A stretch of DNA of 64,000 bases from Cirrosporium novae-zelandiae (lineage: Eukaryota), in contig JAPETS010000005.1 in the NCBI GenBank assembly GCA_026023565.1, positions 496,001 through 560,000 of the forward strand, written 5' to 3'. The position numbers and the translations under genes were made by a program. Below, in pieces: positions 4,710-63,436 of the stretch. The notes below the pieces were generated by a model that did no database searches, was not told the DNA's origin, and was given only the letters and a program-made list of their open reading frames with translations. Numbering within the stretch: the first letter of the stretch is position 1; every line of letters begins with the position of its first letter.

Positions 4710-5481
4710 TATTGTACCACTGTACGTGGGTGTATTTGCAAAATATCAACCGCGTCTATTATAATGTTAACAGATGCCCAGCTTACAACTAACCCTAAAA
4801 GGAACCATGCACCCTCTTACACCACCAAATGCCTGTTATATTCGCTTAAGGGGATGAATATTAATGGTCTGGCATTATATCGAGCGTATGGTTGATGGAA
4901 TATGGCGTTTCATCCATATCCACAAACAAACATTGACAATCCCCTAGATTGTGCTAGATGATGAGCCCCTCTAAAGGCCCAAAGATCCTTTTCGGGTTGC
5001 TCTTTTTATTACTGTTTGTATCAGTCATTTTCTAATAGTTATTCTATCTAAGTAACCTACTACCTTTCGTATATCTGATATTAATTTTCCCTCCTTGGTT
5101 TGATGCAAGTCTCCGACAAATTAATCTGAGAAAGCATTCACTCCTTGCACCAACAGAGACAGTAAAAGCTACCCATTGATTTCTCCTTAGTTGTCGATAT
5201 ACCTTTGTGAGCTTGCTTTGATAATACTCTAACCGTCACCTCAAAGCCTCCTTTAATCATCTCTCCCCCCACCTTCTGTAGCCCAGAACATCATTTGAGA
5301 AGATTCTAGCTAGATTATGTGGTCACTTCTATTTTCATCATTGGGTCACAATATATATTTAGCCGCCCTTTCTCAACTATAACTAAGCTGAAAGAGCGAT
5401 ATCTATAGAACCGCCAAAGACCGACTCGGAATTTTTTCCCTCTCACTTGCCTAATCCCCGTCTTCTTTCATTCTTGAGGGA

Positions 5482-7605
5482 ATGGACATTCCAGATGAAC
5501 AAATCCAGTACGACCCCTCCTTGAAATATCAACCCCAAGACAGTGTTATGTTTACTCAAAAACTTCCAAATAGGAAGAGGTTAGCAGTGGCTGTAGACCT
5601 TCAAGCGCCGAATTCAAAGGTTTCGCGTCGTAAGCTCAGTTCTAGTGAGCCACCTTTAGACCAGGAGATAGTGGACCTAGAAGAGAACACCATCTTCAGT
5701 TACAGTTCTCCCACCAGCAATGATTTTATGACCGAAGATGAATTTAAAATCTATCTACAAGACCAACAGAAGCCTCGCCAAAACAGCGGAAACAGTTTCC
5801 GAACTCAGCCTATACATGTGAAAGAATCACTGGAATCTTTCCGGACCGAAAATATGCAGCTCAGAGTTGGAAAGGTGGTGGAACTCTCGAGTGGAGATTT
5901 CCTTCGGATTAGGAAGATCAAGCAAGATCCGTGCACAACAGAGGTTTTCTTGAAAGGATCGCAGTTTCGTCGATGGAAGGATATGAATCGATTGTTGCCT
6001 CTTTATCTAAACGAAGTATGCTGGGTGATTGAACGGATAGAGAATTCCCTTCAAAATGAGGATGGCGATGTTGAAGTCCCTTTAGCTGAGGTCAGAAAAC
6101 TGCGACGGATCATTTTTACCAACTATCAATACCCCCAATTTTCGACCAAAACAAGACCTAACAAATTTTACGATAAACAAGATAGGTTTGAGAAGGAGGC
6201 ATTAGTATGCAGAATCAAGTTGATCACGATTTACCAAGATGATGCTTCAAAGACTAGGAACAATGTCAAAAGAAAATTGTTCGTCGCATTGACCCCCGAG
6301 GAAGCACACCCTACATGCCGCAAGAGTAGAGAGCTTCTTCGGTACGAATGGCGTGGTCAGGCAGCGCAGGGTGGCGTTTCTCCAAACATTGCAACCTGTT
6401 CTTCCCCGGTGATTCATCTTGATGATGATAGCCTGGATGGAGAAGATAATTGTAGCGAAAGCGCCTCATCATGTACTCTTCCTATGTCACCTCGTTCTTT
6501 ATCACCGCTACCAGATATCGAGATCGTTAGTAGATCCGAATCCCCAGTCGACCTCACAGATGACACCATTCCAGTGACTAAGCTTGCTGAAATGACTGTG
6601 AATGGAACCACGTTTAGGAACCCTTCTGCAGAGATACCTAGATTCCAGTACACATTTGGTGATGCTTTTTGCGGTGCTGGGGGGACTTCAAGAGGAGCAC
6701 TACAAGCGGGACTACGCGTCCTTTGGGGCTTCGATTTCAACATCGAAGCTATCAGATCGTTCTCACTCAATTTCCCTGATGCACTCTGTGAGCACGTTCC
6801 TGTGGATTGGTTTCTTGCTTTTGAAGCCGCGAAATATGTGGTCGACATTCTTCATCTATCTCCTCCATGCCAGCCATTCTCACCAGCACATACGATCGCC
6901 TCTGACCATGACGAGTCCAACGAGGCTGCTCTCTTTGCTATAGGTGGGTTGTTGGACATGACAAAACCTCGGATTGTTACCATGGAGGAGACAGCCGGCC
7001 TCATTGACCGCCATCCAAATTTCTTCCACTCCGTGATCCGGGAATTTGTGTCCCACGGCTACAGCGTCTCATGGCAACGCATCAACTGCATGCTGTACGG
7101 AGTACCTCAAGCTAGGAAACGTTTAGTTATAGTTGCAGCTGGGTGGGTCCCGCCTCACCCCTCCTATTCTGTACATGCTTGGGAGCTAACACTGACTTCC
7201 AGACCTGGCGAAATCATGCCCCCATTCCCAAAGCCAACTCACGGCACAACCGAGGGGCTCATGCCCCTAAACACGATCGGCAGCATGGTCCTAAATATCC
7301 CCCCAAACGCATCCCACAACGAAATCACCACAACCTATGACCCTCCAAAGCAACCATACGCATACGACCAGCTACTCAAGAGCTGCGTCACCACTGGTGG
7401 AGGCGTCGACAACTATCATCCTAGCGGCGAGAGACAATTCACAAATAGAGAATTCGCCTGTCTTCAGACATTTCCGTTGGAACACCAGTTTGGGAACCGG
7501 CAGGTTAAGAAACAGATCGGGAATGCGGTGCCGCCTATGCTTTCAAAGGCTGTTATGATCGAGATTGTGAAGTCTTTGAAGAAGGATGATGGGCTGAATG
7601 GGTAG
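5482..7605 (+). CDS. rid: RID/Masc1/DmtA-type C5 cytosine DNA methyltransferase
   Basis: Motif I DAFCGAGG, motif IV SPPCQPFS, motif VI EET (the RID/Masc1 variant instead of ENV), motif VIII PQARKR, motif X QIGNAVPP. A 60-nt in-frame intron at 7143-7202 (GTGGGT...GCTAAC...CAG) gives AAG-PGE after splicing. Confidence 0.92.
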   Translation: MDIPDEQIQYDPSLKYQPQDSVMFTQKLPNRKRLAVAVDLQAPNSKVSRRKLSSSEPPLDQEIVDLEENTIFSYSSPTSNDFMTEDEFKIYLQDQQKPRQNSGNSFRTQPIHVKESLESFRTENMQLRVGKVVELSSGDFLRIRKIKQDPCTTEVFLKGSQFRRWKDMNRLLPLYLNEVCWVIERIENSLQNEDGDVEVPLAEVRKLRRIIFTNYQYPQFSTKTRPNKFYDKQDRFEKEALVCRIKLITIYQDDASKTRNNVKRKLFVALTPEEAHPTCRKSRELLRYEWRGQAAQGGVSPNIATCSSPVIHLDDDSLDGEDNCSESASSCTLPMSPRSLSPLPDIEIVSRSESPVDLTDDTIPVTKLAEMTVNGTTFRNPSAEIPRFQYTFGDAFCGAGGTSRGALQAGLRVLWGFDFNIEAIRSFSLNFPDALCEHVPVDWFLAFEAAKYVVDILHLSPPCQPFSPAHTIASDHDESNEAALFAIGGLLDMTKPRIVTMEETAGLIDRHPNFFHSVIREFVSHGYSVSWQRINCMLYGVPQARKRLVIVAAGWVPPHPSYSVHAWELTLTSRPGEIMPPFPKPTHGTTEGLMPLNTIGSMVLNIPPNASHNEITTTYDPPKQPYAYDQLLKSCVTTGGGVDNYHPSGERQFTNREFACLQTFPLEHQFGNRQVKKQIGNAVPPMLSKAVMIEIVKSLKKDDGLNG

Positions 7606-22041: not shown

Positions 22042-23844
22042 CTAAAAGGCTGCTTCAGTATTTCCCTCGCCCATACTCCTGTTACTACTGCTCCCGCTTT
22101 GGATGGCTCCAACAATTCCATCCATATATGCCGCACCACTCCATTTCTGATGTGTTAGTACGTCCACCCCCAGCTCCTTCTCCCGCCGTTGGATGAGTTT
22201 CACATATGCCAACATCCCATCCTTTTTGAAATCTCTTGATAGCTCTGCAGTCACAGTTGCATTCGAATGAAGTCCGGCGAGAGATATTAGTTGAAGGATG
22301 AATCCTTCTTTAGCTAGGTCCCAAATAAAAGATTTGAGTGATGCCTCATCGAAGCCCTGGCCCATCCAATTGAATGAGGGACTGAGATTATAGACTAAAA
22401 GCTTGCCTGGATGTACTACCCTTATCCTTCTCGCAAAGTTGGAGGCCTTCTGTACGCTTGGATCACCCGTCTCAACCCAGAGCATATCAGCAAAAGGTGC
22501 AAATTCAATTGCCCGTTTGGTGGCTGCGGCTATGCCTGCCCGATAATGGTAGAAACCTTCTCGAGTACGTGGAATGTCCCACGAGAAGAAGACGGGAGTC
22601 CGTGTGTATTGCTCAGCAATCTTCCGGCGGCGAGATAGGGAGAGATTATGGTCTTTCGCAACTTGGGAATTATACTCTGCTATTTTTGACTGGGGGTCCC
22701 CTTCTTTTTCTAGATGTGTAATGACAGCCTCATCAAAAGTCATTAATTGGTGTTTTTTGACCCATTCGGCTTCATACGTATTGATTTCCTCCGCAGAGGC
22801 ACCCTGCAGTTCCATCGCCTGTAGGGTTTCTGACAGAGGCTCGACTTCCTCATTGACACCTAAAACGAATTCGTGATCACGTATATCAACTGCACTGCTG
22901 ATCAAGCGTCCGCTCTCAGAATCAGTACGAGCAATAATGAGGTTTTCACAACCCATCATGTCCCATTGGAATCTTGCTGCTACTAGCCGATTGATATGGT
23001 CACCCATTGGAACCAATACCTTGCCTGCTAGATGCCCGCATTTTTTTCCACCGTGGAGCTGGTCTTCAAAGTGGACTGCGGCAGCTCCATTCTCTGCCAT
23101 CAGCTTCGCCAACTTTGTAACCGCGGTCAGGCCTCCATGCCCAGTGTCTCCATCTGCTATGATGGGCCTCAGATAGTCAATATATGGGGTTTTAGCTCTT
23201 TCTTCTGCAGACATTTTTCTTCTTGCATCGAAATGTTTACGATCATGTAGCTGTTGGGCTTTAAAAAGACGTTGGACTTGGTTCGGAACCGTGTTATAAG
23301 GATAATCACCGAAATCGGGAGAAACCTCGTTAGTAGTCGTGAGTAAAGAGGAACAGGCCCACCCAGAGATGTAGAGAACCTCTTGGTTTGCAGCTTGCTG
23401 AGTCATTTGAACCGGATCAACAGCGCCTAGAGTGTGTAGGGGTTCTCCATTTTTAGCCCTCTCTTGCAACAAAGAGAAAAGTTTTCGGCCCGTCATGGAG
23501 CTTGGGTAAGTTTGGTATAGAGTCCCTCTTTTGCTGACAACTTGCTCAGCTGAATATGGTCTTGTTATACCCTCAAAACGTGGACTCTTCCACCATTGCT
23601 GTACTTCCCCCACCTGTTGTTTGAAAAGTGCATCTTCGGCGTCTCCAGCCTTGTCAGCTGTTGAAAGGAGCTGGAATGTTTCTGAAGCACTGATTGCTGA
23701 CCCCATTGGTGCTGCTGGGGCAAGGGATGTATGGATTATTCTAATAGTAGCCGTAGGTAAGGGAGTTGAAATTGGGAGTAACCGAATAATAGCTCGTCGA
23801 CTGCTGGATGGGCGCAGAAGCGTCCTAGCCGAACGGCTGATCAT
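22042..23844 (-). CDS. mcl1: Mitochondrial 2-methylisocitrate lyase
   Basis: ICL-family KKCGHLAGK and NLSPSFNW; ISLAG (Ser) rather than the ICL ITLAG; Arg/Ser-rich presequence; divergent from methylcitrate synthase. Confidence 0.9.
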   Translation of the reverse strand: MISRSARTLLRPSSSRRAIIRLLPISTPLPTATIRIIHTSLAPAAPMGSAISASETFQLLSTADKAGDAEDALFKQQVGEVQQWWKSPRFEGITRPYSAEQVVSKRGTLYQTYPSSMTGRKLFSLLQERAKNGEPLHTLGAVDPVQMTQQAANQEVLYISGWACSSLLTTTNEVSPDFGDYPYNTVPNQVQRLFKAQQLHDRKHFDARRKMSAEERAKTPYIDYLRPIIADGDTGHGGLTAVTKLAKLMAENGAAAVHFEDQLHGGKKCGHLAGKVLVPMGDHINRLVAARFQWDMMGCENLIIARTDSESGRLISSAVDIRDHEFVLGVNEEVEPLSETLQAMELQGASAEEINTYEAEWVKKHQLMTFDEAVITHLEKEGDPQSKIAEYNSQVAKDHNLSLSRRRKIAEQYTRTPVFFSWDIPRTREGFYHYRAGIAAATKRAIEFAPFADMLWVETGDPSVQKASNFARRIRVVHPGKLLVYNLSPSFNWMGQGFDEASLKSFIWDLAKEGFILQLISLAGLHSNATVTAELSRDFKKDGMLAYVKLIQRREKELGVDVLTHQKWSGAAYMDGIVGAIQSGSSSNRSMGEGNTEAAF

Positions 23845-24570
23845 GGTGAATTAGATATATGGAGAGAATATTAAAAGGCTATTTCATGATAACTGGGCCG
23901 TGAAGAAGACGAGAGACGCCTGATACAATTCTAGGATATGGGGGTTTAGCTTTCAAAATTAAGCACTTGAGATATCAAAGTACGATTTGATGAAATTGTT
24001 AATGATAGGGTGTTCATTGTCCTTCAAACCGAATGAATATCCTCGGTCTACGGATAATCGCAGTGTTGACTGTGTGTACTTTTGTCATCCCTGCCACCCC
24101 CGTTTTTCGCTTCCCCGCCAAATGCCAAACGATGGGGCCATGGGGAGCACTGGGGGGGGGCAACTGGGGGCTTCCCTATCTAATCTGAGATCCTTGTATC
24201 AATCCAACGCCTCCCCCTCCTCTATCTTCCATTACATTCATCCTTCTCAACCTCAACAAATTTCCTGATTGTTTCTCTGTCCGAGGTATTTATTGATATA
24301 TTTACCTCGGTCCATTGGCTCAATAGCCCCTTGGAAAAAGAAGTATTACTGGAACCCCCCTACAACTCCCTCAGCTTTCCTAGGTTACCAGATCTGGAGC
24401 TCCGCAATCATCATCCATGTAAAACGGTTCCTTGTCGTCCTTTCCACCGGGTTGGCAAAATTATACCCATTCATCCTCTATAAAACTCGCTACTATTATC
24501 CATATCTCTACTACTCTTTATCAGTTTTCTATTTTGCCTTGGTCAGGCCCTCGTCAGTTTTATCGTCAAG

Positions 24571-26171
24571 ATGGCTCCATTGAATCATTTGGTGTGCAAT
24601 GCTCTCCGAGCTGCTCGGGCATGTTCCCTCTCCACAAGCTTAGGCATTATTGAAAATTGCTGACTATCGCTTTCTGTAGGCCCCAACAGTTAAGCGTACA
24701 TCTACCCTTCTCTCCAGACACTATGCATCAGCTTCAGAACCATCTCTTAAGGAGACACTGGCGGGGGTTATCCCAGCTAAAAGAGAACTCTTGAAGAAAG
24801 TGAAAAGCCATGCAGGAAAGTCGATAGGTGAAGTCAAGGTTGAAAACACAATTGGAGGCATGAGGTTCGTTATGTGTTGAATCCCCTGATTATGCTGGTT
24901 CTAACACAAATGGTGGTGAATATAGGGGCTTAAAGGGAATGGTCTGGGAAGGTTCGGTTCTCGATTCCCATGAGGGTATCCGATTCCACGGCAAGACAAT
25001 CAAAGAATGTCAGGAGGTGCTCCCAAAGGGCACATCAGGCACCGAGATGCTGCCAGAAGCAATGTTCTGGCTTCTTCTCACTGGACAGGTTCCATCAACA
25101 CCACAAGTTCGACAGTTCTCCCGCGAACTAGCGGAAAAAGCAGCACTTCCAAAGTTTGTCGAGAATATGATGGACCATTTCCCAACAGATCTCCACCCAA
25201 TGACTCAATTTGCTTGTGCTGTGTCTGCGCTGAACCATACATCTGTATTCGTTAAAGCTTATGAGAAAGGGTTAAACAAAGCTGAATACTGGGAACCGAC
25301 TTTCGATGACTGCATCTCTCTGATAGCAAAATTGCCTACTATCGCAGCCAAGATCTATCAGAATTCCTATCGCGGCGGGGGGCCATTGCCTGCTAAAATT
25401 GATCTTGATCAAGATTGGGCATATAACTTCGCAGCTATGCTAGGAAAGGGGGACAAGGAGCACGAAAGCTTCCAAGATCTGCTACGGTTATACTTGGCTT
25501 TGCATGGAGATCATGAAGGTGGAAATGTATCTGCGCACGCGACCCATCTTGTTGGAAGTGCCCTCAGTGATCCGTTCCTAAGCTATAGCGCGGGACTTCA
25601 AGGTCTGGCGGGTCCATTACACGGGTAAGGCCCATCCCCCATTCTCATTAGGGATGTTGAATTTTAACGGATTTGTAGGCTTGCCGCGCAAGAAGTGCTA
25701 AGATGGACATTAGCCATGAAGCAGCAGATCGGCGATTCCTGTTCAGATGAAGAGGTCAAAGACTTCCTGTGGAAGACCCTCAAATCAGGACAAGTTGTAC
25801 CGGGATATGGTCACGCCGTTCTTCGAAAGCCTGATCCCCGCTTCTCAGCCCTAATGGATTTCGCATCTTCCCGTCCAGAAATAGCCCAAGATCCCATCTT
25901 CAAGCTGGTGAAGCAGAACTCCGAGATCGCACCACAGGTGCTCATCGAACACGGCAAGACCAAAAATCCATACCCAAACGTCGACTCGTCATCCGGCGTT
26001 CTCTTCCACCACTACGGCTTCCGCGAAACACTGTACTATACCGCCACTTTTGGCGTCAGCCGTGGCCTGGGACCCCTGGCCCAGTTGATCTGGGACCGCG
26101 CTTTGGGCCTCCCGATCGAGCGGCCAAAGAGTATCAATCTTCAAGGCATTCTTGATTTGGTTGAAAAGTAA
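24571..26171 (+). CDS. mcsA: Mitochondrial 2-methylcitrate synthase (4 exons)
   Basis: Presequence, [63 protein letters not shown]; context next to methylisocitrate lyase. Confidence 0.88.
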
Positions 26172-26771: not shown

Positions 26772-29700
26772 TCAAATCCTCATCGACTCCGGCGGCCCCA
26801 TATAACTATCCCTAACCCCTCCCAAATCAAGAACGATCTTCTGGAACAGAACTCCAGGTTCCATCGCCCACAAATATAGTACATGCTCCCCAGCCTTCCC
26901 GAACCCCATTCCCTCTAGCGAAACCGTACTCTCCCAGACCCCATCCACGACCGCGTCATCCCACCCGTCTGGCAGTGTTCCCAGATCTGTGGTAGGGACG
27001 TACTGGACAGTAGTTAGGGATTTGGAGGTTGGCGAGGCATCGTCGATGGAGAATACATATTTGAGGGGGTTGGAGGGGGATGTGTTGAGGGCGGTTGTGA
27101 GGTAGAGGGTCAGGTTTGCAGTGGTGCAAGGGGTGAAGGTGTAGAGGTTGTAGGAGAGGTAGGGGGAGTTCGGGGGAGATTGCGGGGAGATGGTCTCCGG
27201 CATGAGGGTTATGCTGGAGTGGGTCCGGGAGAGGCCGGGGATGGTAACGTAGTGTGCGGCAGAGTCATCATATGAGGAGTTGGAAGAAGAAACGTTTTGA
27301 GAAAAGTGCGCAGCTTCAATTGAGACTGTGGCATCCGATTCGACAAAGCCGTGGAAGGTTTCTGGCGCTGCGGTTTTGTTTATGGGCAGGTTTACTTGAG
27401 GGAGATCGAAGTTTCCGTAGTCTGTTGAGGATGTGACATTAATGTAGCAGATGTTGGTGCCGTTGGGGGCGGAGGGCCAGTCTACGGAGACGAGGACCCG
27501 GGCGTCAGTGTTGTTTGCGGAGGCTGATAAGGTACCGGTAGTCGGCGTGACTGTGACCCATGGGTTTACGGGCGTGATAGTAAAGGTGAAGGCGCCGGTT
27601 CCCCGGGAATATATGTCGATCCAGCGGGTAGAGGGGCCGTAGGGGTCCATTGGTGGGAGCACAAGTGTGAAGTTTGACAGGCCCTCGTTGTAGTCGCTAT
27701 CACCGGGTACGCTGCCGTTGCTGCCTTCGACTGAGACGCCGAGGTTGCCGGCGAGACCCATTTCGAGGGTTTGCGTCCACATGAGTCCTGGGAGGGTGTT
27801 CCGCATTGGTTGCTGCCTTGAAAGAGGGTGAGTAGAATGTTTTGAGGCGTGCTTGGGTTCTGATGTGTTGGAGGGGGGGCTTACCAATAGTCATATCCGA
27901 GATGGGTTTGGTCCATCATATGGTTCCATTTTCCGTTTAACAAGGAATGATAACGGACTGTGAGGCTATGATCTTCATTGAAAGCTTGTAGGACTTCTTT
28001 TGCGACTGTGTTGGCAATGGTGCGTCGCTGTTCGGCATACATGTTATTTCTTGCAGCATTGATGTGGATGTAGTTGACTACATAGCCAGCAAGGCACGGG
28101 TGCAAGACGAGTTCGAAGAACGAGGGTTGTGCATCAGATGATAGTGCGTCATAAACGGTTTGGGCCTTGGCAATCATCGTCTGCCACTCCTCGAGCACGG
28201 AGTCAGCTTCGTTATAATTGATCAAACTATATGTTGAGGTATCAATGTCTTCGTATTTTCTTCTCCCAGCAAGAATGGAATAGTTGTACATGACTTCGGC
28301 GGTGGCATCTGCAACGTCGGTTCCAAACTCCCTAGCAGCCCATTGGCTGAGCCAGGAATAGATGCTGTCTGGAGAAGACCATGTGTCAATATCGAAAGCC
28401 AGATCAAAAAAGTGGCTGATTGGAATTTCCTACACTCATTAGTATACCCACCAAGTGGGGAAATATGGTGAGACAAACCAGGGCTTTGAGATCTCCAACA
28501 TTGACAATCCATATCTGCTGTACCCCTTTTTCATAGGCCATATGCATCTGTTGCCATGTCTTTTGCAAATTGATCGTATTGATCCACTTATAGTCCCGAG
28601 GGTCTCCCACATAGTCAAAATGATAATAGATGCCTGCACCACCGGCACGGTCTGTCTCGTTATCCAGAGGAAGCCTTTGGTTGTTCCCCCAGTTATCATC
28701 AGCCCACAGCATAGTGATATCATCTGGTACTGATAGACCTTGTTGTAAGTATTTTCCAACTTCTTTGTACAAACACCACATCTGAGGGATTGCAGAAATG
28801 TTTGTTGTGTTGTAGACATCAGCAAGAATTTCTTGTTGTACAGTGATGATATCCTCAAGAGATGAAGCGTTGAGGGTTGGAGAAGCAGTATCTTCAAATA
28901 GTTATGTCAACACGCTTTGCTCTTTTCAAATAATCATAAGTTTACTTACCTCCCGATCCTCGCATGCCCATTGTGAACATATTTTCATAGGGGGAGGCCC
29001 TCTCCGCACCATATCTCATGAATTCGGTGACGTTGGCTTTGTTAGTATTCCAGGCCCAATTTCCGTGGAGGAATGTAGATTGCTCTTTCGTAGCCCTCAT
29101 CATCGGTTCGGTGTGGCTTGTTCCCATAACAATGCCATACATATCAGCGGTGTATTCATTTTTTGGGTCGTCGACGTTGAACATAGAATCCCACATTGTT
29201 GGCCAACTTCAGGTTATTAATTAGCACACTGTCGGGCTCATCCAAAACTAGTCTTCGCAACAAATAAAGGGACGTTTTGTAGTAAAGTTATTTTACTAGG
29301 AATTCTTCCAAGCACATCACGAACATGGGTTCCTTAACGTGTATAATCTCGCTGCAATGGAAAAAATTCGGGAAACTTTTAGAGCACCTTCTAGCTCTCT
29401 GGCTTTTTGGCTTGGCCTGCTCTGTCTTGTTGCAAACACTCTTTGGAATAATGGAAATGGCTTACAGGTAGTTAGCTCGAAGTCTCAGCAAGAGCTCGAA
29501 AACGAGGGAGTAGAATTCCGCATTGTATCCCGGTCCATATTCGCCTTCAGGGTAATTGGCGTTGATCCAATTGGTAAGAGCGGGCTATCGAGGGAAACGC
29601 TTAATTAATAAAAGCATACTGATTCTGGTACTGGAGCAAACTTACCTGTTCGTCATTCAGAAACAGTCCTCTGTATTTCACCGAAGGTGGCCCGCTCAAT

Positions 29701-42638: not shown

Positions 42639-44917
42639 ATGCGACCTGGAACCGGATGGCAAGTTATTATCTTCTGCTGCTGATAGGGTTTCCCAGCTAA
42701 CCAGCATAGTCGAAATTGTCGATTTCGTCACAGCAAATGTAACCTTTCAGCTAATCTATGTTTGTTGGGGTATTAAAGATTATCCAGGTGTCGTTCAATC
42801 TGATTCCTCGGCCTGTGTGAAGTGCATTGAGGCAGGCCAGTCTTGCCATTTTGATCCTCGATTCCGATTCAAAGAAGTTCACCATGTCTACCACAGCCCT
42901 GGTGGAACTCGCCGACGTAAATATCAATTCTCCTATGGAAAACATCAAAATTGGGTTAATATCCCCTCCACAAGTGAGTCCATCGTCCTGTTTCTGCTGT
43001 AATATTCGTTTCAGTGACGTTAACAGTAGTCTTTTCAAGTCACCTTTATCGCAGAGAATGGTAATGAAGAGCCCCCGCTAGAAGAGACTAGTGGTAAGCG
43101 CGACAAGGAGATCTGTGTAGAGTCTGTTCCTCCCTTTCCATCGCCCTCGGAGCCACACTCGCCTAGTTCGATCGAGCGTCACTGTGGCCACCATAATTCC
43201 GACTCTGCCTCGCTCCAGGACGGGGGGCTGGTAGAGTCACCACAGGAGCACTTGAGAAGGCCTCGTTATTCGCGGCACCAAGAGAGAGGAGCTCGAAGAA
43301 CCACTTCCAATTTCTGGGAAAGTTATCTATCCAATCAAACCTTGGAAGCATTACCTACTTCTACTACACCACAGAATCAACAAAACGATGAACAGGAGAT
43401 TGTGCCAAATTCACCAAACTCGAATGAATTATTTCATTCTCCGACATATTCTCAGCTGTCATTTTCGCACTCAAGCGCCTCGTTACCCACACCGGAGCAG
43501 TCATCGTATACTCCAGGCAGCCTCTCAACAGTTCGAGAGATCTATCCGCACCCACTAAATAGCAGAGAAGCATTTTTGCTTCACAATTTTGTCCACAAGT
43601 TGGCACCTTGGGTACTGTCTCCACTTTCCAGGAGTTGGCGATATGAATACCGTTGCTGATAATATTAGTAGGCTGATGCCTGCGATTTAGCCTGTCATTT
43701 TGGGACAGAGGTTCCTCGGCGTGCTCTCCACACTCCAATGATCCTCTATGCAATTATGGCCTGTTCTTCGAGGCATCAAGCCCTCCTATTAGAAACAGAT
43801 CAAATAGAGTCTTCTTTGTATCATAGCCGATGTTTGAACCTCCTTATTCCTGCTCTTTCAGAAGATAGCTATGATGAGAACCTGCTGGCGACTGTGGTAG
43901 TTCTACGGCTCTATGAAGAACTTGACAGTCGAGAGGACACCAAATGCCATCTTCTGGGTACGACCAGATTGCTCAACTCGATTGCGAAATTCTCTTCTTC
44001 AGGTGGGCTAGGGGAGGCAGCCAGCTGGCTTTCACTCCGTCAAGCGATGTATGCATCATTGGTCCAGAAAGAGCCAATGAATATAAATTTGGAGAATTAT
44101 GAACATTCTGCTGCTTTCTATGAAAGCGATGATGCCTCATGCGCTAATGTGATTGTGTTCCTGGTGGCAAAAATCCTTTCGTTAGCACTACGCTCAGTTG
44201 ATGGGATAGATCCTGAAGTTTGGTCTCAATTGGAGAAAGAAATAGAGGCATGGAATGAGACAAGGCCACCGTCCTTTCAACCGATATGTCATCAAGAGGC
44301 AGATATTTCACAGGGTCGTCCGTTTCCAGAAATATGGCTTATGACTTCTGCTCAGGGTAAGTCAATGCTAGACTACGAAATTTTCCGAGTATTACGGGTC
44401 CAAGGTTGATTACTATATGTAGTTGTCGGCTTGCAGCACTATCATGCTGCAAAAATTATTCTTACATTGTATAAACCACCGTTGGGACCTTTGGGATTTG
44501 AGGCTTCAAGATCGAGAAGAAACGCTGAGGTGCGTACTCTGATTTTAAGAGTTGAAATATAGTCTAGCTGACATAAGTAAATCGATTAGAAAATCATCTC
44601 TTCCCATTTAGTGATTATAATAGGTATAGCAATCTCCAACCACTTCATCGAAAACGCAAACTTTACTGCCCACCATCTTCTTTCTCTTTGTGAGTGCCAG
44701 GGCTCTTTCCCCCTCTTCAAGATTGATTTACGAAGAACAAGAAAATATTAACATGGTAAATGTGAATGTAGGTGGTTATTGCCTCACACATCCCGTAGAG
44801 CGAGAACATGCAATAAAATTTTTGACTAGGGTGGAAGAAGTAATGATGTGGAGGACATGCTCGACAATCGAGGCACTCCGAAGGCAATGGCTAGACCTGG
44901 ATGGATTAGATAAATAA
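42639..44917 (+). CDS. Zn(II)2Cys6 transcription factor with fungal-specific TF domain
   Basis: Exons 42639-42658, 42710-42738 and 42788 onward give MRPGTGCRNCRFRHSKCVVQSDSSACVKCIEAGQSC (six Cys); later LAPW-ADACD..HF, DENLLATVVVLRLYEE, AASWLSLRQ. Confidence 0.88.
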
Positions 44918-45417
44918 TGAGGATATTTAATTATTCTGATTTGATACAATTGAACCAAAGTATTTTTTGAAACCTCTTTCATGTCTATAGACTAGACGGT
45001 TGAATTAGAGTTGAAGGAGAATATTTCCTTATCGGTAGAATGGATTAAATAGGTTAAGCGTGGCCTACGGGAAACAGAACTTCTTTCAGAGATCTCCCTC
45101 CGGTACAGTGTAGTGTAATCCCCCGCAATTATATGCACTCCACACTTTGTACATTAACCCATCATCTTTCGACAGCCATCCCCGAACTTTCCTCTTTCAG
45201 CAATTTGGGAGACCCTCGCCATAAGCCATTTCTTAACATAAATGGATGCAATATCATTTTCTTCCTTGTCATACGGCTCGTTCTATATTCATAGCTAGTT
45301 CGTTGCTTTATTTAAGAAACGACAAGGCATTCCTTGAATCCAAATGGCTTCTCTTCTACATCTCCTTTCCATTCTATCTCCTATATATCCAGTTCACATT
45401 CAATCAACTTGCACAAG

Positions 45418-47010
45418 ATGTACGGGAATATTATTGGCACAGCGGTAGCTGTTCTTTTAGTTCTTTACTTTTTTGGAAAACCTGTGTTTGACTACTTTCG
45501 AGATGTGAAAGGACTTCGACGATTCCCAAATATGGATCTCTTCTCTGGCATGACCAACTTATCCTTCATGATCGAATCCCATAAAGGTTTTCGGTCAAAA
45601 AGACTTTACGAGTTGCATTCAAAAGGGATGCCTGTAATCCGGACAGGTCCTAACTCTCTTTCATATGGAGACGTCAGAGCAATCAAGGCAAGTAATACGG
45701 TTTTACATGAAGCCGTGCGTCCATCCTGACCTTTTCAGGATATCTATGGCCACAGTACCAAATGTACCAAAGATGATGCCTACATCATCACTTCAGGCAG
45801 CCACTTTCACCTTGCAGATGTTGTCAATAAAACCGATCACGCACGGAAGAGGAAGGTTCTTTCATCGGCATACGCCCTCAAAAATCTCGAAGAATGGGAG
45901 CACAAAGTTACAGACAAAACGCAAAGACTAGTGAATCAGTTCGATAAGATCTGCAGGCAGTCAAAATCGACTCCAATCGTAGATTACCGATCCTGGACAA
46001 ATTTCTTCTCTCTCGACGCCATAGCTGATATCGGCCTTAGCGAACGACTCGGATTCCTTGACCGCGGCGATGATAAGTGTCTTGCTGAGCACCGCAACGG
46101 TAAAACTTGGGAAGTCAACTTCCGAGAATGCCTTTACGCCAATTCCCGTGCACAGTCAGGCATCATGTGGTCGTACAACTGGTACAAACTCCTAGTTAAA
46201 ATGACCAACGTCCTGTCTCCCTGGTACCGCCGTCTCTGGAAGCTGAACGAAGGCTGGGACGGAATCGTCCTCCGACGTGCCTCGGAAAGGTTCAGAAGAT
46301 ACCAAAAAGGGGAAAACCTCGATGACTTCTTCCGTTCCCTAATGGAAGACAAAAAAGGTAACATCAACAACCTCGAATGGGGTGAAATCGTAGCCGAGGT
46401 CTCCATCATGATGAACGCCGGCAGCACGACAACCGCTATCGCCATGGCCAACGTCTTCTTCCAAATCCACAAACACCCAGAAATCCTCCACAAACTCCGC
46501 TCCGAAATCGACTCCGTCCTCGATCCAGCCGAAACCATCGCCCCGTACGAAAAGGTCCGCTACCTTCCTTACTTACGCGCCTGCCTTGACGAAAGCATGC
46601 GCCTCTACCCTCCCACATCTCATGGCCTCCCCCGCTCCACACCCCCAGAGGGCACATCCATCCTCGGCGAATGGATCCCAGGAAACACAACCGTGTCGAT
46701 GAGCGCGTTCGTGGCCCACAGAGACACCACCGTTTTCCCAGACCCCGAAACCTACAACCCGGATCGGTGGCTCGGGGACGCCGGCAAGGAATTGCAGCCT
46801 TACTTCATAGCGTTCTCCGCAGGGGCCAGAGGCTGCATCGGCCGGAACATTTCCTATCTAGAACAGACGATTGTGTTGGCGACTATGCTGCATCGGTATG
46901 AATGTGAGCTGTTGCATCCCGGGTGGGAACCCGAGAGACGCGAGACTTTGAACTTGCATCTCGGGTCTCTGCCGATGAAAATTAGAAGGAGGGAGGTTTT
47001 ACAAAATTAG
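45418..47010 (+). CDS. Cytochrome P450, CYP53 (benzoate 4-monooxygenase)-clan-like
   Basis: N-terminal TM, IRTGPNSLS, AIK-DIYGH across GC-AG intron 45688-45738, I-helix AGSTTT, ESMR, PDRW, heme motif FSAGARGCIG. Confidence 0.93.
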
Positions 47011-47526
47011 ATGGATAGATGGATTGGTTACTGGTTACAGCAGGCCTATAATAGGAGAGAGAACTTTTTTTTCAAAATCTCGAGAGTTTCATTTTCATTT
47101 TCAAATTTTTTTTCGATGAATCTTCAAGTTCTCACTTCTATATAATCAACTAAATCAATCATCCTCAATTCGATATTATTTCCCTAACTGTAAAAATAGC
47201 CGACAAGAAAAACAAAACAAATAAAAAAGTAATTCCAACCTCTTTTTTAATACGTCGTATGCAAATCTAGCCCTAGACCTACCCCTCTAAGGGGTCTGTG
47301 CTCTATACAACAAACTAGGCAAACGCTACAAACTAAGTAAATCCGTAATAGAAATATTATAAAGAATAATAATTATGGATGAGATTATTCTTCGTGTTAT
47401 ATGTGAATAGTATGAATGTGCAAGTAAAGAAATAGTGAGTTTTAAATTTTTAAATTATGTAAGGACGCGCCCCTCCCCGCTTGGGACTTTCTCAGATTGA
47501 ACTGAACGTCCAAGTAAACTCTTTTT

Positions 47527-49449
47527 TTACGGCATCACTCTCCCTGGATCCCTAGGGAACAATGTCGCGAGCCTCACGTTCCAAGCCCCAACCAATTCAG
47601 CACGACTCTTTCAGCGCCAAATGCACCGCCCGCATGCGGTGGACATCCTATAATCATTCATTTATAAATCAACTTCCATCTCATACACCCAAAAGCCAGC
47701 AAGCAAGCAAGCGAGCAACAAAACATACCATAACCAAACGCCTGAACATAGTCTCTGAACCCCAAGCTATCCGGCTCGAGTCCCAAATGCAGCATACGCT
47801 CTCTTAGCAAGTCGTGGTCGTGGATACGCTGTGCTCCCGAAAGGACTTCCTGGCCGCGCATCATGAAGTCGTAGGAATGGGAGAATTTGGGATTGGTGGC
47901 TGAGGGCATGGTGTAGAAGGCGCGGACGTCGAGGGGGTATTCTTTTAGGATGTAGAAGTCGGTGTTGTATTTTGATTGGATGATGGTGCCGAGGAGCTTT
48001 TCTTGAGTGGAGCTGTGTGGTTGGAGGTAAGTGGGATGTATGGATGTATGGATGTATGAATGTGGGATTGGGTTTAAGGGGGTCGGGGGGGGGGGTTACT
48101 TTATATCTTCGTCTTCGGATATTGAGACGCCAGCTTCGTTGAGTAGTTTCACGCCTTCGGCGAAGGAGAGGATGGGGACGTCCTCTGGTTTTGCTGGGAC
48201 TTTGAATGGAGGGGCTTTATACTCCTTTCGTACTCGCTCGGTCTGTTTCTGATATCTGGTCCGCAGCCCATTGAGGATATATAGCAAAAGATCACGGATT
48301 AAGAACATGACTTCCGTGTAGTCATTTTCAAACTCCATTTCCAAGTCCAAGGACGTATACTCTGTAAGGTGACGAGAGGTGTTGCTGTTCTCGGCTCGAA
48401 ACACTGGTGCGGTTTCGAAGACACGCTCGTACCCCGCAGCAATCAACATCTGCTTGTACGCTTGTGGCGACTGGGCGAGGTATACTTTTTTGCCAAAGTA
48501 GTCGACGGTGAAAACTTCACTGCCGCCCTCGCTGGGTTCGCCAACTAGTTTCGGCGTGTCGATTTTCATGAATGGCGGGTCCTGTTTACGCAGGAATTCC
48601 TCAAACAGCTAGTGCACGCCGTCACGAATCTCGAAGATGGCTCTGCTCAGCGTACTGCGCAGACCTAGAACACGGTTATCGAGACGTTTGGACAGACTAA
48701 TGAGCGGCCGCCCGTTTTCAACTTGTTGCTCTTCAGCGCCTAAGGTTTCGTTCGGTAGCGCTTGCTTCGCGTCATCGATTTGAATAGGGAGTTGAGGGAT
48801 GACCTTGGAAACGATCCAGGGCTTCGTGACCTGCAATTCTCAATTGCTGATGGTGGCACTCTTGATAGGCTCTTTAGGCACTTTGACAATTCCGATTACA
48901 TCGACAATGGACTCTACGGGGACCGTAGCCACGAACTTGACCATTTGCCTGCTGAGTGAATCGCTAACCGCTACGACAGCCTGTATCGACTCGAGCTTAT
49001 TACGAAGATTGAGGAAAGCAAGCTTTGCGGATTGGCTGCGTGAATTGGTAATTCGGCAACGTACAGCAATCTCGACGCCATCTTCCGACTCCCCGACCTG
49101 ATTTAGCCGATGGCGTTTCCGACCAAGGGGCTTATAGTCCTTGGATCCTACGATCGGGAGCTCTCCATAGCTGTCTTTGGAAACGTTGTTGGCTTCGGCT
49201 TCGGCTTCAGCTTTTCGGGCGACCTCCTGTCTTTGCAATGCCTTTTCCGCCTGTAACGCTCGTCATTAGCTTTTAGAATATTGAAAGGGTACCTCTATCA
49301 AGAATTTGATGTTCTTTGAAATATCATGGGCGTACCTTTGCCTTTTCCTTCTCTAGCTTCTTAAGAGCATTCTTTGACAACTTTTCTCCCCCTTCGGAGG
49401 TCCCGGCTCCCTCAGCGGGTCTCTCAGGTAATGATTCCTGGCTGGACAT
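47527..49449 (-). pseudogene. Cytoplasmic-type aspartyl-tRNA synthetase with two in-frame premature stops (probable pseudogene)
   Basis: RLDNRVLGLR, YLAQSPQ, PVFRAENSNTSRHLTEY, GQEVLSGAQRIH, GCPPHAGG...LFPRDP. Exon 2 has TGA at 48840-48842 (ATISN*ELQV) and TAG at 48609-48611 (DGVH*LFEEFL), with no intron signals seen around either stop. Confidence 0.85.
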
Positions 49450-49558
49450 GCTATGTCGTGTTCTTTAGCAATTAACGTACCGATGTTGAGCTTCAGATAA
49501 TTAAGTATACTGGGGCCTTTAATAAACGAATCATCTATCCATGAATCATCCCCCTCAA

Positions 49559-49565
49559 TGACTCA
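49559..49565. promoter_or_regulatory. Gcn4/CpcA site TGACTCA about 110 bp upstream of the AspRS ATG
   Basis: Perfect consensus; aminoacyl-tRNA synthetase genes are known cross-pathway-control targets. Confidence 0.5.
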
Positions 49566-50256
49566 GAGCAGTACGTTGTACCAAATGCGGAATAGTCCAT
49601 TTATATTAGGCTATTGCCAGATACCAGTACGTCTGAGAAGAGCAAGGTGGATACCTAGGTATCCTATATTCACACTCTAACCAAATCGCTATCATTATTT
49701 TGAGTTGTCTCATTGGTTCGACAACGTTGTTGGGGGTGATGAATTGCCGATTCGATAGATATCGCGAAATCGTTGCCGAGTACCATAGATGGATAGAAGA
49801 GATACTACTAACAAGTGATGGTAACAAAAATTAACTTGATCGAGTAAAGTATGTAATTATAAATACATAAATAGGTACCTACGTATGTAAGTTTTCTATC
49901 AAGTCCACGTTTGGTTTCAATCCTCCCCAAACAGTGCTGCATTTCTTATCCTACCTAGGTACATTTCTTTCGATGTACTGTACAACATTTACATCGGCAT
50001 ACCAAGGTATTTTTCCTTCCCTGGCCGATAGTTACGCTTTGTTGTTGCATCCGCAACGCTGCAAGGTACTAATCGTACTAATAAGGGGAATCTGGTCCCT
50101 TTCCCGACTGATATTAACCTGCTATCTGTGCCTCTTTTTATTGCTTCCTTGAATCTCTAATAAGCTTGCCTATGAAACCGATTTCTTATAGTCCTACCAT
50201 CGTGATTTTTCTGAACCCTGGACTGCGTAAGCAATCTTCAAACTCATACTAGAGCC

Positions 50257-51582: not shown

Positions 51583-52934
51583 TCAAGGCACTCCTTTCAA
51601 GGTGCTCTTGTCTGTGTCATCTTCATCTCCTTCCCTCACATCTACATCCACCGTTTTCACAACCTTGATCCCATCGTCGCCAGCCCCAGCATCCGCATCT
51701 CGCAGAATCATATCCTCACTACTCCCATCTCTACCATGACCCACATCCCGACTCCCACCCTCAACCTTCACGCCATCTCTCGGCCGATAATACATTAAAT
51801 CAATATCATTCTCGTCGGCATGCATGCGGTACCCAGAGCGATTGGAAGCATACCGGCTTCTTCCATATGCGCCGGTACGGCCGCGCGTAGTGGGGCTTGA
51901 GAGGGATTTGACAATGAAGACGCGGGAAATAAGGGTATCGAATCGGGGCTTTAGAGGTGGTGTTGAGGCAGTGTAGAGACCGACATTTAGTTCGGCAACG
52001 CTCCAGCAGACGAGGTTTACCGAAGCGTAGGTATAGTCCGTGGTGACAAGGAGAGCCCCGAGTTCGGTCGTTTTTACAACGGAGCAGACAGTTGCGCTGA
52101 AGGAGGGAGGTCAGGGATGTGGATTGGAAAGTTTAAAGGACATGGGCTTAAATTAATGTACTTACAAAAGGCCAAATAGGAATATCACCCGCAAGGCCCA
52201 TTGGTGCCATTTTCGCAATTTTGCTTTAGCAATATAGACCAAAGGAGAAGTGGTAAAGACTAAATCCGTCACAATATTGGCAACTATGATAGCTTTTTTG
52301 TCAGCAATGATACGCCGATACCCAAATTAGGTCATCATACTCACCTGATTGAGCATAACCAGTCCCCTCATTAACTGTAGCAGGCCAGCAATTCCCTGTC
52401 ACTCTCACATCCCAAGTTGACACGAAAGGATGACACCGACCCAACTGCGCGATCAGAGCTGTCAATGTGGCAAGAAAGTTGATAAGAACGGCAGTGTAGA
52501 CAGTCCATCTGTATCTTCTACCCAGATTGAGACGAAGCAACGAAATAGCAATACTAAGTTTTAAGAAAAACACAGCAAGCACATTTGAAGGCTCAGCAAA
52601 AAATGTGTACTTCAGAGCTCCGATAAGTTCGTCTACTGCGAGATATTCAACATGTCTACCAAAACCATAATTCACTGCTACAACGTTAAAGATGGATGAA
52701 ACTACCCCAATTACCTTGGTTCATCAGTTAAACACTATATTTCTGAATGAATTTCGCAGAGAAACTTACCATCGCAAGAGCAGCTAGATAATCATCCCAT
52801 CCTACTGCTCGAGTGACAAAGATTCTCGTATGTAGTCGAAAGACCATTTGAAACAATGCCAGTAAGGTCAGGGAGATGACTGTGCCATAAATGGTAGAAC
52901 CTCGACTAACGTCAAGAGGAGTCGACTCTGTCAT
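51583..52934 (-). CDS. PTH11-like (rhodopsin-domain) integral membrane protein without CFEM
   Basis: RLHTRIFVTRAVGWDDYLAALA, YGFGRHVEYL, LKLSIAISLLRL, CHP...WD...GNC, WSVAELNVGLYTASTPPLKP. Confidence 0.88.
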
Positions 52935-54949: not shown

Positions 54950-56716
54950 ATGGGTCTAGGTATACGTGAGCCAAATCACAAGGGCGAAGGCCGCATTCCA
55001 GGAACGTTGCATCTCTATGATGATGATAGCATCGATTCCAACGAAGGTCCAGATAGCCCAGAGCTCAACAGAAATGTCAAGCATGCAGGGTCCAGCAGCC
55101 TAATTCTCTTTCCGCAGCCATCTGAATCTCTAAATGATCCTCTGGTAAGTACGTCTATAGCCGTTTACTTGTCCATATATACTGACGTGGATCGAGAACT
55201 GGTCTCAATGGAAGAAGGACCTAACTCTTTTTTCCATCTGCTTTGCAGCTGGGATCGGTGCCTTGCTCGGCCCTCTTCTCTCACCTGTCAACGCCATCTT
55301 GGCAGAAGAGTATGGTGTCTCGATTAACGAGGCATCGGAATTGCAAGGCTATCCCCTATTCATGTCTGCGTGCGGTGCCGTCGTTTTTTCTGCATTCTCT
55401 AGAGTCTGGGGGAAAAGGCCGGTATATCTTTTCGCAATTATCCTAATCTTTGCCTCCACGCTCTGGATCATCTGGAATGGATCCTTCAAAAGCTTTCTGG
55501 GTGCCCGTATACTCTATGGGTTTGGCTTGGGAGCATACGAGGGCATTGTAACTGCCTCAATCGGTGACATGTTTTTTGTGAGTCAACACATGACTTAACC
55601 ATTTATGCTGAAATTAACTCATTAAATTAGGTCCATCAACGAGGTACCCGAGTTACAATTTACACTCTCTGGTTGCTCGGCTGCACCAACTTTGCGCCTG
55701 TCATTGGCGGTTATATTTCTCTCAAGCACGGCTGGAGAATGCAATTCAAGATCAGCGCAATATTTGTCGGCATTGCGGTCCTCCTCGTTACCCTGTTCTG
55801 TCCCGAAACAGCCTACGGCCGCCCGAAAGTGTTTGAAACGGATATTACTTCCGACACAAGCATACTCCATGCCAAGGACGAGAAAGGAGAAATAAAGACA
55901 ACAACCACTTCGACAACCCCAGCCGGCTCAAACTCCGACGCGCAATCCGACGAACCCCAAAGGACCTGGACCCAAGAACTCCAACCATTCTCGGGGCGCT
56001 ATTCCAACGACAATCTCTTCAAGTTGCTAGCTCGACCTTTCATCTGCATGCTATACCCCGCAGTCCTCTTCGGATTTCTCGTAATCGGGGTAATGACAGC
56101 CTGGGCCGTCGGGGTCGCTATCACCATGGCGCAAGTCTTCTCGGTCCCACCAGCCTCCTTCAACTCAGCCCAACTCGGCTACACCTTCACCTTCGCAGCC
56201 GTCGGCTGCGCCACAGCCTGCATCTTCGGCTCCGTAGCGCTCGACCCCCTCTCGAAATACGCCGCGCGCCGCAACAACCGCATCCTGGAGCCAGAATTCC
56301 GAATCATCCTCACCATCGTCGTGTACATATTCGCAATCCCAGGCATCTTCTCCTTTGGCTACTACGCAACGACCCCGCACCCGCACTGGGTCGTCGTGAG
56401 CATCCTCTACGGTCTCATCGATTTTGGAGATATCCTCTCCGCCAGCATCTCCTGCACCTACGTCCTCGACTGCCATCGGGACTACGCCGTCGAAATGACC
56501 GTCGGCCTGCAGTTGCTGAGAAATTTTTTCAGCTTCGCCGCGAGCTACTTCCTTCCGAACTGGTTGGAGAACTCGGGTACCCGTAGGGTGTACTACTCCA
56601 TGGGTGGCATCGAGTGCGCCATGTTTGTTGTGTGTTTCTTCATGTATGTTTTTGGAAAATGCTTGCGGAATTTCGTGCACAGGCATAGCCCGTTGAGGTT
56701 TTTTCATCTGGAGTGA
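54950..56716 (+). CDS. MFS transporter (HOL1-like / DHA1-related)
   Basis: ILFPQPSESLNDPL-NWSQWKK, SRVWGKRPVYL, IGDMFF-VHQRG, LFCPET, EPEFRI; multiple TM segments. Confidence 0.9.
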
Positions 56717-61737: not shown

Positions 61738-62409
61738 CTACACCAGAGGTTTCTTAGCCTTGAACAACAAAATAGCCCCTACTGTGCGGCTCTCAACCTC
61801 GTGAAAGTTTCGCCTCAATGATTCCACCACTGCCTCTTCACTATCTTTTCGATTGTCGAAGAATCCAACCGTATTACCAAGTTTCAGCACCGCTTTGCCG
61901 AACAAATTGTGCTTGACTCCTGTACCAAGGATAGTAGCTCCATACACCACGCCGTCTCTGGTGAGATTGAATTTAAGATGGTCAAAGATGGCAGTCTTTC
62001 TACTTGGGGGGCCGGGCATGCAATGTAGCAAGTAGAACATCGACACCGAATTGAACCGCTGTTTTGTTGGAAGCGGCTCGAAGATGTCATGGAGTATGCA
62101 CTCCGTATCTGGTCTGCCCATTTTAGCTTTCGAGGCTTCCAGAGCGTTGGGGTTGAGATCGGCGAGTGTCATGTGTACATCTGCTGGAATTTTGGCGTGA
62201 CTCAGGAAATATCCAGTTCCAACACCGATATCGAGATGATTTTTGCCCATATTCTCTCGAAAGAATGGTAGAAGAACTTTGGTGGTCCGGCAGCGCCATG
62301 CGTAGCTATTCACAACACCAAGCACCCACCAGTCATAGATAGCCAGTAGCCAGCGACTGTAAATGGCTGCGCCCTGCGCGCCAGTCTTCTCTTGTACGTT
62401 TGAAGACAT
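61738..62409 (-). CDS. Class I SAM-dependent methyltransferase (intronless)
   Basis: ATG at 62409; YDWWVLG...AWRC, HLDIGVGTG, LADLNPNAL, FYLLHCMPG, GVVYGATILG. Confidence 0.88.
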   Translation of the reverse strand: MSSNVQEKTGAQGAAIYSRWLLAIYDWWVLGVVNSYAWRCRTTKVLLPFFRENMGKNHLDIGVGTGYFLSHAKIPADVHMTLADLNPNALEASKAKMGRPDTECILHDIFEPLPTKQRFNSVSMFYLLHCMPGPPSRKTAIFDHLKFNLTRDGVVYGATILGTGVKHNLFGKAVLKLGNTVGFFDNRKDSEEAVVESLRRNFHEVESRTVGAILLFKAKKPLV

Positions 62410-63436
62410 TGAACGGGTAATTTTAGAAAGATAATTTTGCAATGTCTCTGTATAGGAAAATGGGATGATAACTTTGGTGGATGCAGCTTTTGGACGTTTG
62501 GTGTCTCTAATAGAAAAAAATTCCAAGATCTGGATAGTAATGTACAAAGTAGGTGGGGTTTTCAATTGACAGTAAGTAAGCTGGGTTGGAAAGAATCTAG
62601 CAGGACTAGATTATATAGACTGTTACAGTCCTCAGTGAAATCAACCTTCACAGAGCCGGCTGGTAATATTGGAAGGATTAAGATGCAAAGGATTTTGCCA
62701 TGGAGGTATCAGGATTGTAATCAAGGGGTAAGATTGATTGGTTTGCATCCTGAACCTCAAGAGAATATCAAACATATTTCTCAAGACTTCAGCTGGTATG
62801 GAGGATACTTTGGGGGCTGTCAGCCTATTGAACTCTGAGGGTAAGCGAGGCTTCACGGATATGCAGAGATTTGGATACGAAAACATAAACTAGACTTGAC
62901 CGATTTTTCTTTTGGCTGATTCGGATTTCGTTCAGTTCGCCTGCAGTTCCCTCGCCGTTACTTTCGAGATGTACCATATAAGAACTAAGGGTAAGGTAAG
63001 ACTAGACTAGGGCAACCAATATTGTTAACGGGATTGGCTTGTTCACTAGTCGGCTTCTTCAGCTTAAAGTGCCGAGGTGCCCTAGAAGTTAGATTAACCA
63101 AAAATGCATCCCTTTCGTCCTCCCTACATCCGGCTACTACTACAGTTCACAGCATATGCAACTACTTTAGGAACTAAAACCCTTGCCTTAGCTATAGGTT
63201 GATGCCTCTACTGAGTCGTGTTAGAGTAAATCAATGAAGTCAATCTGGTTTGAGGTATAGGTCATCATGTATTGGTTATCGAAGGCAATCACAATGAAGA
63301 TCAAAACAGCAACAATGACACTATTTATGGTTGCAGCAGAATCTTCTTTTGCTGGCCTATCTGTATTCTGTGTTGAGTATTAAAACTCTATTCTATAAAC
63401 CTCACAAGAAGAAATCAACTGGAGTAGCGCCATACC

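Follow-up and report, generated by a model that had tools for sequence, protein, structure and literature searches.

Within a 64,000-nt stretch of the Cirrosporium novae-zelandiae assembly GCA_026023565.1 (contig JAPETS010000005.1, positions 496,001 to 560,000; hereafter the window, to which all coordinates refer) we found a minus-strand gene for an aspartyl-tRNA synthetase (AspRS) whose reading frame is broken by two in-frame stop codons and a one-base deletion. The sequence itself and alignments with relatives led to a model of four exons, separated by three introns that all begin with GT and end with AG (Table 1). The class II core domain of Asp, Lys and Asn (D, K, N) synthetases (PF00152) was detected on exon 2 with 124.8 bits and on exon 3 with 51.6 bits at a cutoff of 25. 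The OB-fold domain PF01336, which is carried by the nearest relatives, reached 23 bits on exon 2 compared to a cutoff of 27. The best match of exon 2 to a solved structure was the yeast AspRS (1asy_A, E 8.4e-86), which aligned to query residues 27-387 and covered the OB-fold part, and the next structure match was human cytosolic AspRS. The translation further holds VFRAENSNTSRH (FRAE...) and GGAFGAER (G.G.ER), which we take to be motifs 2 and 3 of the class II enzymes, respectively. Because of the PF00152 matches and the matches to 1asy_A and human cytosolic AspRS, the gene is classified here as a eukaryotic cytosolic-type class IIb AspRS by descent and, as judged from its reading frame, not as a functional member of this family. 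In its domain order it appears to match the cytosolic enzymes of yeast (1asy/1asz, 1eov) and human (4j15), in which an N-terminal extension is followed by the OB-fold anticodon-binding domain and then by the class II core. Unlike either of them, the window gene cannot encode an enzyme, given its frameshift and its two in-frame stops.

The original prediction for this locus, which was made from the DNA letters alone, had described an AspRS gene with two premature stops and without any frameshift. Both stop codons were borne out by the translation of exon 2 and by tblastn, as homology runs on in the exon 2 frame on either side of the TGA and of the TAG. The claim that there were no frameshifts did not hold. 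The spliced coding sequence (CDS) amounts to 1670 nt (2 mod 3), and one frame of exon 4 gives GCPPHAGGAFGAERVVLNWLGLGT while the next frame gives ...NVRLATLFPRDPGRVMP. Both parts lie in a single frame in intact relatives, as in ...GAFGAERIVLNWLGIGNVRLATLFPRDPGRLMP* of the metagenome sequence L001 (2.2 kb with an intact AspRS, the one relative with DNA that a metagenome scan gave) and ...NWLDLKNVRLATLFPRDPSRVTP of protein P0006 from Venturia inaequalis. A tblastx comparison of L001 with the window returned two high-scoring segment pairs in different frames (47648-47580 and 47592-47527), and blastn paired 119 nucleotides of L001 with 118 in the window. When P0006 was used as tblastn query, residues 46-544 matched in frame -3 down to position 47583 and residues 546-562 matched in frame -2 from position 47580. 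As these three comparisons agree, one base is missing at the AA run 47579-47580. The Asn codon at the site of the deletion is present in all 78 full-length homologues compared, and an uninterrupted frame to the conserved C-terminus (...FPRDP.R..P) was not found in the window gene. At all three lesion places the relatives P0001, P0002, P0003, P0004, P0006 and P0009 as well as the translated L001 are intact. From the DNA as read, no functional full-length enzyme is encodable; the TGA, as the first stop, would by itself cost the protein its entire catalytic domain.

The residues at the two stop sites were compared across 19 further members of the clade that contains the window gene and in a wider alignment of 81 rows. 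Among the 18 clade members with a residue at the TGA site, Arg was found in 11 and Lys in five, with one Val and one Ile. The TAG site was variable in the 19 relatives (Phe in 4, Gln in 3, Asp in 3, Leu in 2, Ile in 2, His in 2, and Asn, Lys and Ser in one each), and two of those with Gln are P0001 and P0002, the nearest relatives. The orthologue comparison that had been proposed as a check for recoding found no Trp at the TGA site (0/18) or at the TAG site (0/19) in the clade, and none in the 81 rows of the wider alignment. Going by the residues of the relatives, each stop is plausibly a single C-to-T step away from their likely codons, namely CGA to TGA and CAG to TAG.

Table 1. Features of the AspRS locus and of its surroundings in the window
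Feature	Coordinates	Strand	Description
Exon 1	49336-49449	-	114 nt; ATG at 49449-49447; MSSQESLPERP...KEKAK; matched by tblastn with P0003 and P0006 (residues 1-39/41); N-terminus of P0076
Intron 1	49251-49335	-	85 nt; GTACGC...TTACAG; same splice in public protein P0076
Exon 2	48100-49250	-	1151 nt; predicted OB-fold anticodon-binding domain and first half of class II catalytic core; holds both in-frame stops
Intron 2	48013-48099	-	87 nt; donor GTAACC followed by a run of 11 C; ends CACACAG
Exon 3	47729-48012	-	284 nt; second half of catalytic core; PF00152
Intron 3	47648-47728	-	81 nt; GTATGT...TTATAG; no counterpart in L001
Exon 4	47527-47647	-	121 nt; motif 3 (GCPPHAGGAFGAER...) in one frame, conserved C-terminus NVRLATLFPRDPGRVMP* in another; three-frame translation, tblastx, tblastn
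In-frame TGA	48840-48842	-	End of OB-fold domain; frame reads ...KSATISN*ELQVTKPW...
In-frame TAG	48609-48611	-	Early catalytic domain; frame reads ...EIRDGVH*LFEEFLRK...
One-base deletion	47579-47580	-	AA run in last exon; GGAAC versus GGAAAC implied by relatives; frame switch 47583/47580
Premature TGA after frameshift	47574-47576	-	Predicted product ends ...NWLGLGT*; last 17 residues lost
False intron in P0076	48831-48881	-	51 nt; GTGCCT...TTGCAG; encodes 17 residues (PKEPIKSATISN*ELQ)
TGACTCA	49559-49565	+	110 nt upstream of ATG
C-5 cytosine DNA methylase ORF	5455-7602	+	716 residues; PF00145, E 2.7e-35; no BAH match
Methylcitrate-cycle-like pair	22045-26168		Methylisocitrate/isocitrate lyase, 602-residue ORF (-), head to head with citrate-synthase family gene, two ORFs (+)
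GH115 glycosyl hydrolase	26775-28901	-	Over three adjoining ORFs
Genes around the AspRS locus	43030-47010, 51586-52110, 55631-56713, 61741-62610		Fungal-specific transcription factor domain, cytochrome P450, 'fungal rhodopsin domain' membrane protein, MFS transporter, methyltransferase
ORF, open reading frame; MFS, major facilitator superfamily.

Outside the three lesions, the protein showed no measurable missense decay. At clade-invariant columns it has 2 private changes in 124, and the other 19 members of the clade have 0-5 at 89-127 columns. Its terminal branch (0.20) is no longer than the paths to its sisters (0.16-0.32). The 78 full-length homologues of the broad set have 179 columns with a conservation of 95% or more. 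The window protein departs from the consensus at 21 of them, which reflects the clade and not decay, since its intact clade-mates do so at 9-19. As missense decay is not yet measurable, we infer that the inactivation was recent. The original prediction had also pointed to drift in two motifs, but this is for the most part a property of the clade. One of them, GAFGAER, is present in the intact L001 as well, and GGAFG is common to the whole clade; the other, GEPSEGG, does differ from the GAPSEGG or GSPSEGG of the relatives.

Among the best 120 matches of exon 2 the closest named ones came from Trichodelitschia (64% identity), Venturia (63%) and Tothia (61%), and metagenome proteins matched with 72-73%; the overall range for the named relatives (P0003, P0006, P0009, P0014) was 54-64%. 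Apart from P0076, the public protein of this locus, the named matches among these 120 belong to genera which we take to be Dothideomycetes, with the exception of Xylona, Chrysothrix and one plant record. The proteins of Trichodelitschia bisporula (P0003), Venturia inaequalis (P0006), Tothia fuscella (P0009) and Verruconis gallopava (P0014) and the metagenome proteins P0001 and P0002 have in common an Arg or Lys at the TGA site, GGAFG in motif 3 and IVLNWL, and an intron after ...EDIK lies at the same position in the window gene and its relatives. All six are intact, and the named ones are from Dothideomycetes, unlike the host Cirrosporium. In a tree of 56 rows the window protein fell into a 10-row clade with Venturia-group species and metagenome proteins (support of 100 in the Shimodaira-Hasegawa-like approximate likelihood ratio test, SH-aLRT), with Rhizodiscina plus Aulographum as its sister (99). 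The two are nested in a Dothideomycete/Arthoniomycete/Xylonomycete AspRS group (100), and 50%-identity representatives served as outgroup rows. A placement of the window protein and its metagenome kin outside 25 named rows was rejected by the approximately unbiased (AU) test (delta log-likelihood 135.7, p = 1.5e-6). Cirrosporium novae-zelandiae is placed in the class Xylobotryomycetes by NCBI, and published phylogenomics places it outside the Dothideomycetes.

One neighbouring gene was compared with the AspRS, namely the methylisocitrate lyase 25 kb away. Its best matches were a mix of Lecanoromycetes and Eurotiomycetes with 71-80% identity, and a tree of 37 rows put it on a branch that was long (0.41) and isolated among the classes of Pezizomycotina, belonging neither to the Dothideomycete clade (10 rows, 95) nor to the Eurotiomycete clade (11 rows, 90). 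The public proteins of both genes (P0076 for the AspRS locus and P0121 for the lyase) are each encoded on a 987,993-nt contig, and a 17-kb contig from sequencing run X1 spans the AspRS gene, which shows it to be physically joined to its neighbours. Because the AspRS tree places the gene among Dothideomycete AspRS while the neighbouring lyase and the published placement of Cirrosporium fall outside that class, the AspRS copy is discordant with its host, for which horizontal acquisition or some other kind of redundancy is the simplest explanation, by a small balance of probability. Base composition did not discriminate a foreign origin, as the G+C content at third codon positions of the AspRS gene (0.57-0.68) was within the range of the window (0.40-0.70). 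When the Xylona AspRS was used as query, the best 120 of 6806 matches were all of the Xylonomycete/Dothideomycete/Arthoniomycete kind and none of these 120 was named Cirrosporium, Venturia, Tothia, Verruconis or Trichodelitschia, which weakly suggests that the proteins of the Venturia-group clade are the only AspRS of those species. A limited literature search for transfers, pseudogenes or paralogs of aminoacyl-tRNA synthetases in fungi showed nothing relevant among the papers listed.

Apart from the window gene, the diverse clade consisting of P0001, P0002, P0004, P0007, P0008, P0011, P0013, P0016, P0019, P0020 and L001 is known from metagenomes alone. It is sister to the Venturia, Tothia, Verruconis and Trichodelitschia proteins.

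Taken together, the locus is very probably a recently inactivated AspRS pseudogene with three independent disabling lesions. A recently dead paralog had been listed among the alternatives of the original prediction, and it is now favoured by the three lesions together with the undetectable missense decay. The TGA takes the place of a conserved Arg or Lys where the anticodon-binding domain ends. The TAG stands where the catalytic domain starts, at a variable position that is Gln in the nearest relatives, and the one-base deletion in the last exon removes the 17 conserved C-terminal residues. The copy might have been dispensable because it was a second, probably horizontally acquired AspRS of Dothideomycete type in a non-Dothideomycete host, and a working AspRS of the host itself would be expected elsewhere in the genome given that the enzyme is essential. 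We regard this full account, a dead gene copy that was dispensable as a second and probably foreign AspRS, as likely; its component that the copy is foreign or redundant we favour only slightly. The locus represents a candidate for the transfer of an aminoacyl-tRNA synthetase gene between classes of fungi followed by its loss, and it draws attention to an AspRS clade so far restricted to metagenomes. A more specific scenario, which we consider rather improbable, would see in the locus what is left of an accessory AspRS that belongs to this clade and was acquired horizontally. It may have been kept as a spare (an inhibitor-insensitive synthetase, for example) next to the genes for the P450, the transcription factor and the MFS transporter, and have been lost once there was no more need for it.

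Several observations weigh against the account of a dead and redundant copy. A second AspRS copy was found neither among the matches listed in the protein searches nor among the contigs of X1, and no other protein named Cirrosporium was among the matches listed for the exon 2 and Xylona AspRS queries. The stretch was matched at 80% likeness or more by one of the 157,048 contigs of X1, the source contig alone; any second copy must therefore be diverged. The clade around the window gene consists of metagenome sequences and might represent the ordinary AspRS of fungi that are poorly sampled, the host among them, and if the gene were the sole copy its death would be unexplained. The group in the AU test had been named after the tree was seen, and the trees came from 'quick' searches under LG+G4. 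The pairwise ratio of nonsynonymous to synonymous changes (dN/dS) between the window gene and L001, a check that had been suggested for the part downstream of the stops, was about 0.05 over 369 codon pairs and uninformative because synonymous sites were saturated (proportion of synonymous differences, pS, 0.749); all it indicates is that constraint acted through most of the history that the two share. The failure to find a second copy in these searches and the restriction of the clade to metagenome sequences would fit a situation in which the gene is the only cytosolic AspRS of the host, either vertically inherited or an ancient replacement, and in which an intact allele or nucleus is hidden by the consensus or the material was not viable. 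This is nevertheless unlikely in our view, as three lesions building up in an essential single-copy gene are implausible, the gene tree disagrees both with the neighbouring gene and with where the host has been placed in the literature, and the contig of X1 that covers the gene shows no second letter at any position, with the reservation that rare variants are lost from contigs.

The same contig bears on the possibility that the lesions are not real. The public record is labelled a metagenome-assembled genome (MAG), and the stops and the deletion could be sequencing or assembly errors in a real gene that is intact. X1 was the only public run found to contain this DNA, with all sampled words present, and two further runs of the same study (X2 and X3) had nothing on the stretch, which is no proof of absence. 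One Logan contig of X1 (17,073 nt, mean word depth 357) covers positions 47450-49600 with no differing letters and no gaps over 2151 bases; it is a separate assembly, perhaps from the assembly's own reads, in which case X1 would be no independent sample. Since this separately built contig is identical at such depth, sequence error is very unlikely. It would require three independent errors in 1.7 kb, two of them substitutions, and the deletion sits in a run of merely two or three A's. The original prediction had also raised recoding, by which a functional gene would be restored through A-to-I editing in the sexual stage, as in premature-stop-corrected (PSC) genes of Fusarium graminearum, with UAG and UGA both becoming UGG (Trp). 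An A read as G does give a Trp codon at both stops, the rest of the protein shows no measurable missense decay, and the in-frame TAG in an otherwise conserved CDS resembles the F. graminearum PSC pseudogenes as they are described in PMC10776026, where a TAG is reported at each corrected site and a non-Trp origin of such stops is common. According to PMC11156358, fungal A-to-I editing favours hairpin loops and U at position -1, and this preferred U is present in the UAG. In the UGA, however, the A is preceded by G, and 41-nt folds around the stops were no more stable than shuffled sequences (z -0.78 and -0.21). The window gene further differs from the PSC pseudogenes in the additional TGA and the frameshift and in its host, which as a member of the Xylobotryomycetes is outside the lineages reported to edit; PMC10776026 traces the editing machinery to the ancestor of the Sordariomycetes, with an independent origin in the Pezizomycetes. 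AspRS is also a housekeeping enzyme rather than one specific to the sexual stage. No relative has Trp at either site, and a one-base deletion that costs 17 conserved residues is beyond repair by editing. Recoding is thus close to refuted because of the frameshift, and the attractive idea of an essential synthetase that is sustained by stop-codon editing outside the Sordariomycetes fails on a lesion that had been overlooked.

Damage by repeat-induced point mutation (RIP) of a duplicated copy, aided by a RID-like methyltransferase encoded in the same window, had been considered plausible as well. The change from CAG to TAG is indeed of the CpA-to-TpA kind, and a DNA methylase ORF without BAH domain is present in the window (Table 1). 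RIP is customarily recognized by a TpA/ApT index above 0.89 and a substrate index, (CpA+TpG)/(ApC+GpT), below 1.03. For the AspRS gene these were 0.74 and 1.17, and its GC content (0.50) exceeds the mean of the window (0.45). A RIP-like signature, defined as TpA/ApT above 1.2 together with a substrate index below 0.8, was found in none of the 127 1-kb windows. The inferred change from CGA to TGA is in a CpG and not a CpA context, deletions are not produced by RIP, and no partner copy was present at 80% likeness or more among the contigs of X1. We consider RIP highly improbable as the cause of the lesions. As to the methylase itself, its nearest Atlas clusters contain ascomycete proteins of 576-753 residues with PF00145 alone. 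This is consistent with an enzyme of the RID/Masc1/DmtA kind rather than Dim-2, which makes it a candidate for a RID enzyme.

In the public annotation the locus is represented by a 'hypothetical protein' of 234 aa (P0076) with '-' in the precomputed Pfam column. This model has exon 1 and intron 1 as modelled here and continues through exon 2 up to the TAG, where it stops, omitting 17 residues around the TGA by means of an additional 51-nt intron. As these 17 residues are conserved in all relatives, this intron is a modelling artefact. The current annotation thereby masks both the damage and the AspRS identity, and the locus should be flagged as an AspRS pseudogene.

The genes in the neighbourhood (Table 1) did not support a biosynthetic cluster, since no polyketide synthase (PKS), nonribosomal peptide synthetase (NRPS) or terpene synthase was found near the gene in a Pfam scan of 31 long ORFs of at least 150 residues. 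In a limited literature search on AspRS as a self-resistance gene in fungal biosynthetic clusters, the AspRS passages of PMC8597713 turned out to concern the bacterial microcin C. Beyond the AspRS gene, no synteny was found between the 2.2 kb of L001 and the window. The perfect TGACTCA that had been reported upstream of the gene is present, but the motif is no more frequent than by chance, with 8 sites in the window versus 9.38 expected.

Some further observations concern the introns. The splice signals had been described as valid, which applies to the GT and AG ends of all three introns, but the donor of intron 2 (GTAACC) is weak. The usual fungal donor is GTRNGT, and the counterpart of intron 2 in L001 (711-843) has a GTAAGT donor together with a GCTAAC motif that resembles a branch site. 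The odd donor and the adjacent C run of intron 2 could be one more trace of decay or, alternatively, a homopolymer of doubtful sequence. Intron 2 also carries three copies of CATACATC. The equivalents of exon 3 and exon 4 are continuous in L001 (1100-1140), and with no counterpart there, intron 3 was therefore gained or lost within the clade.

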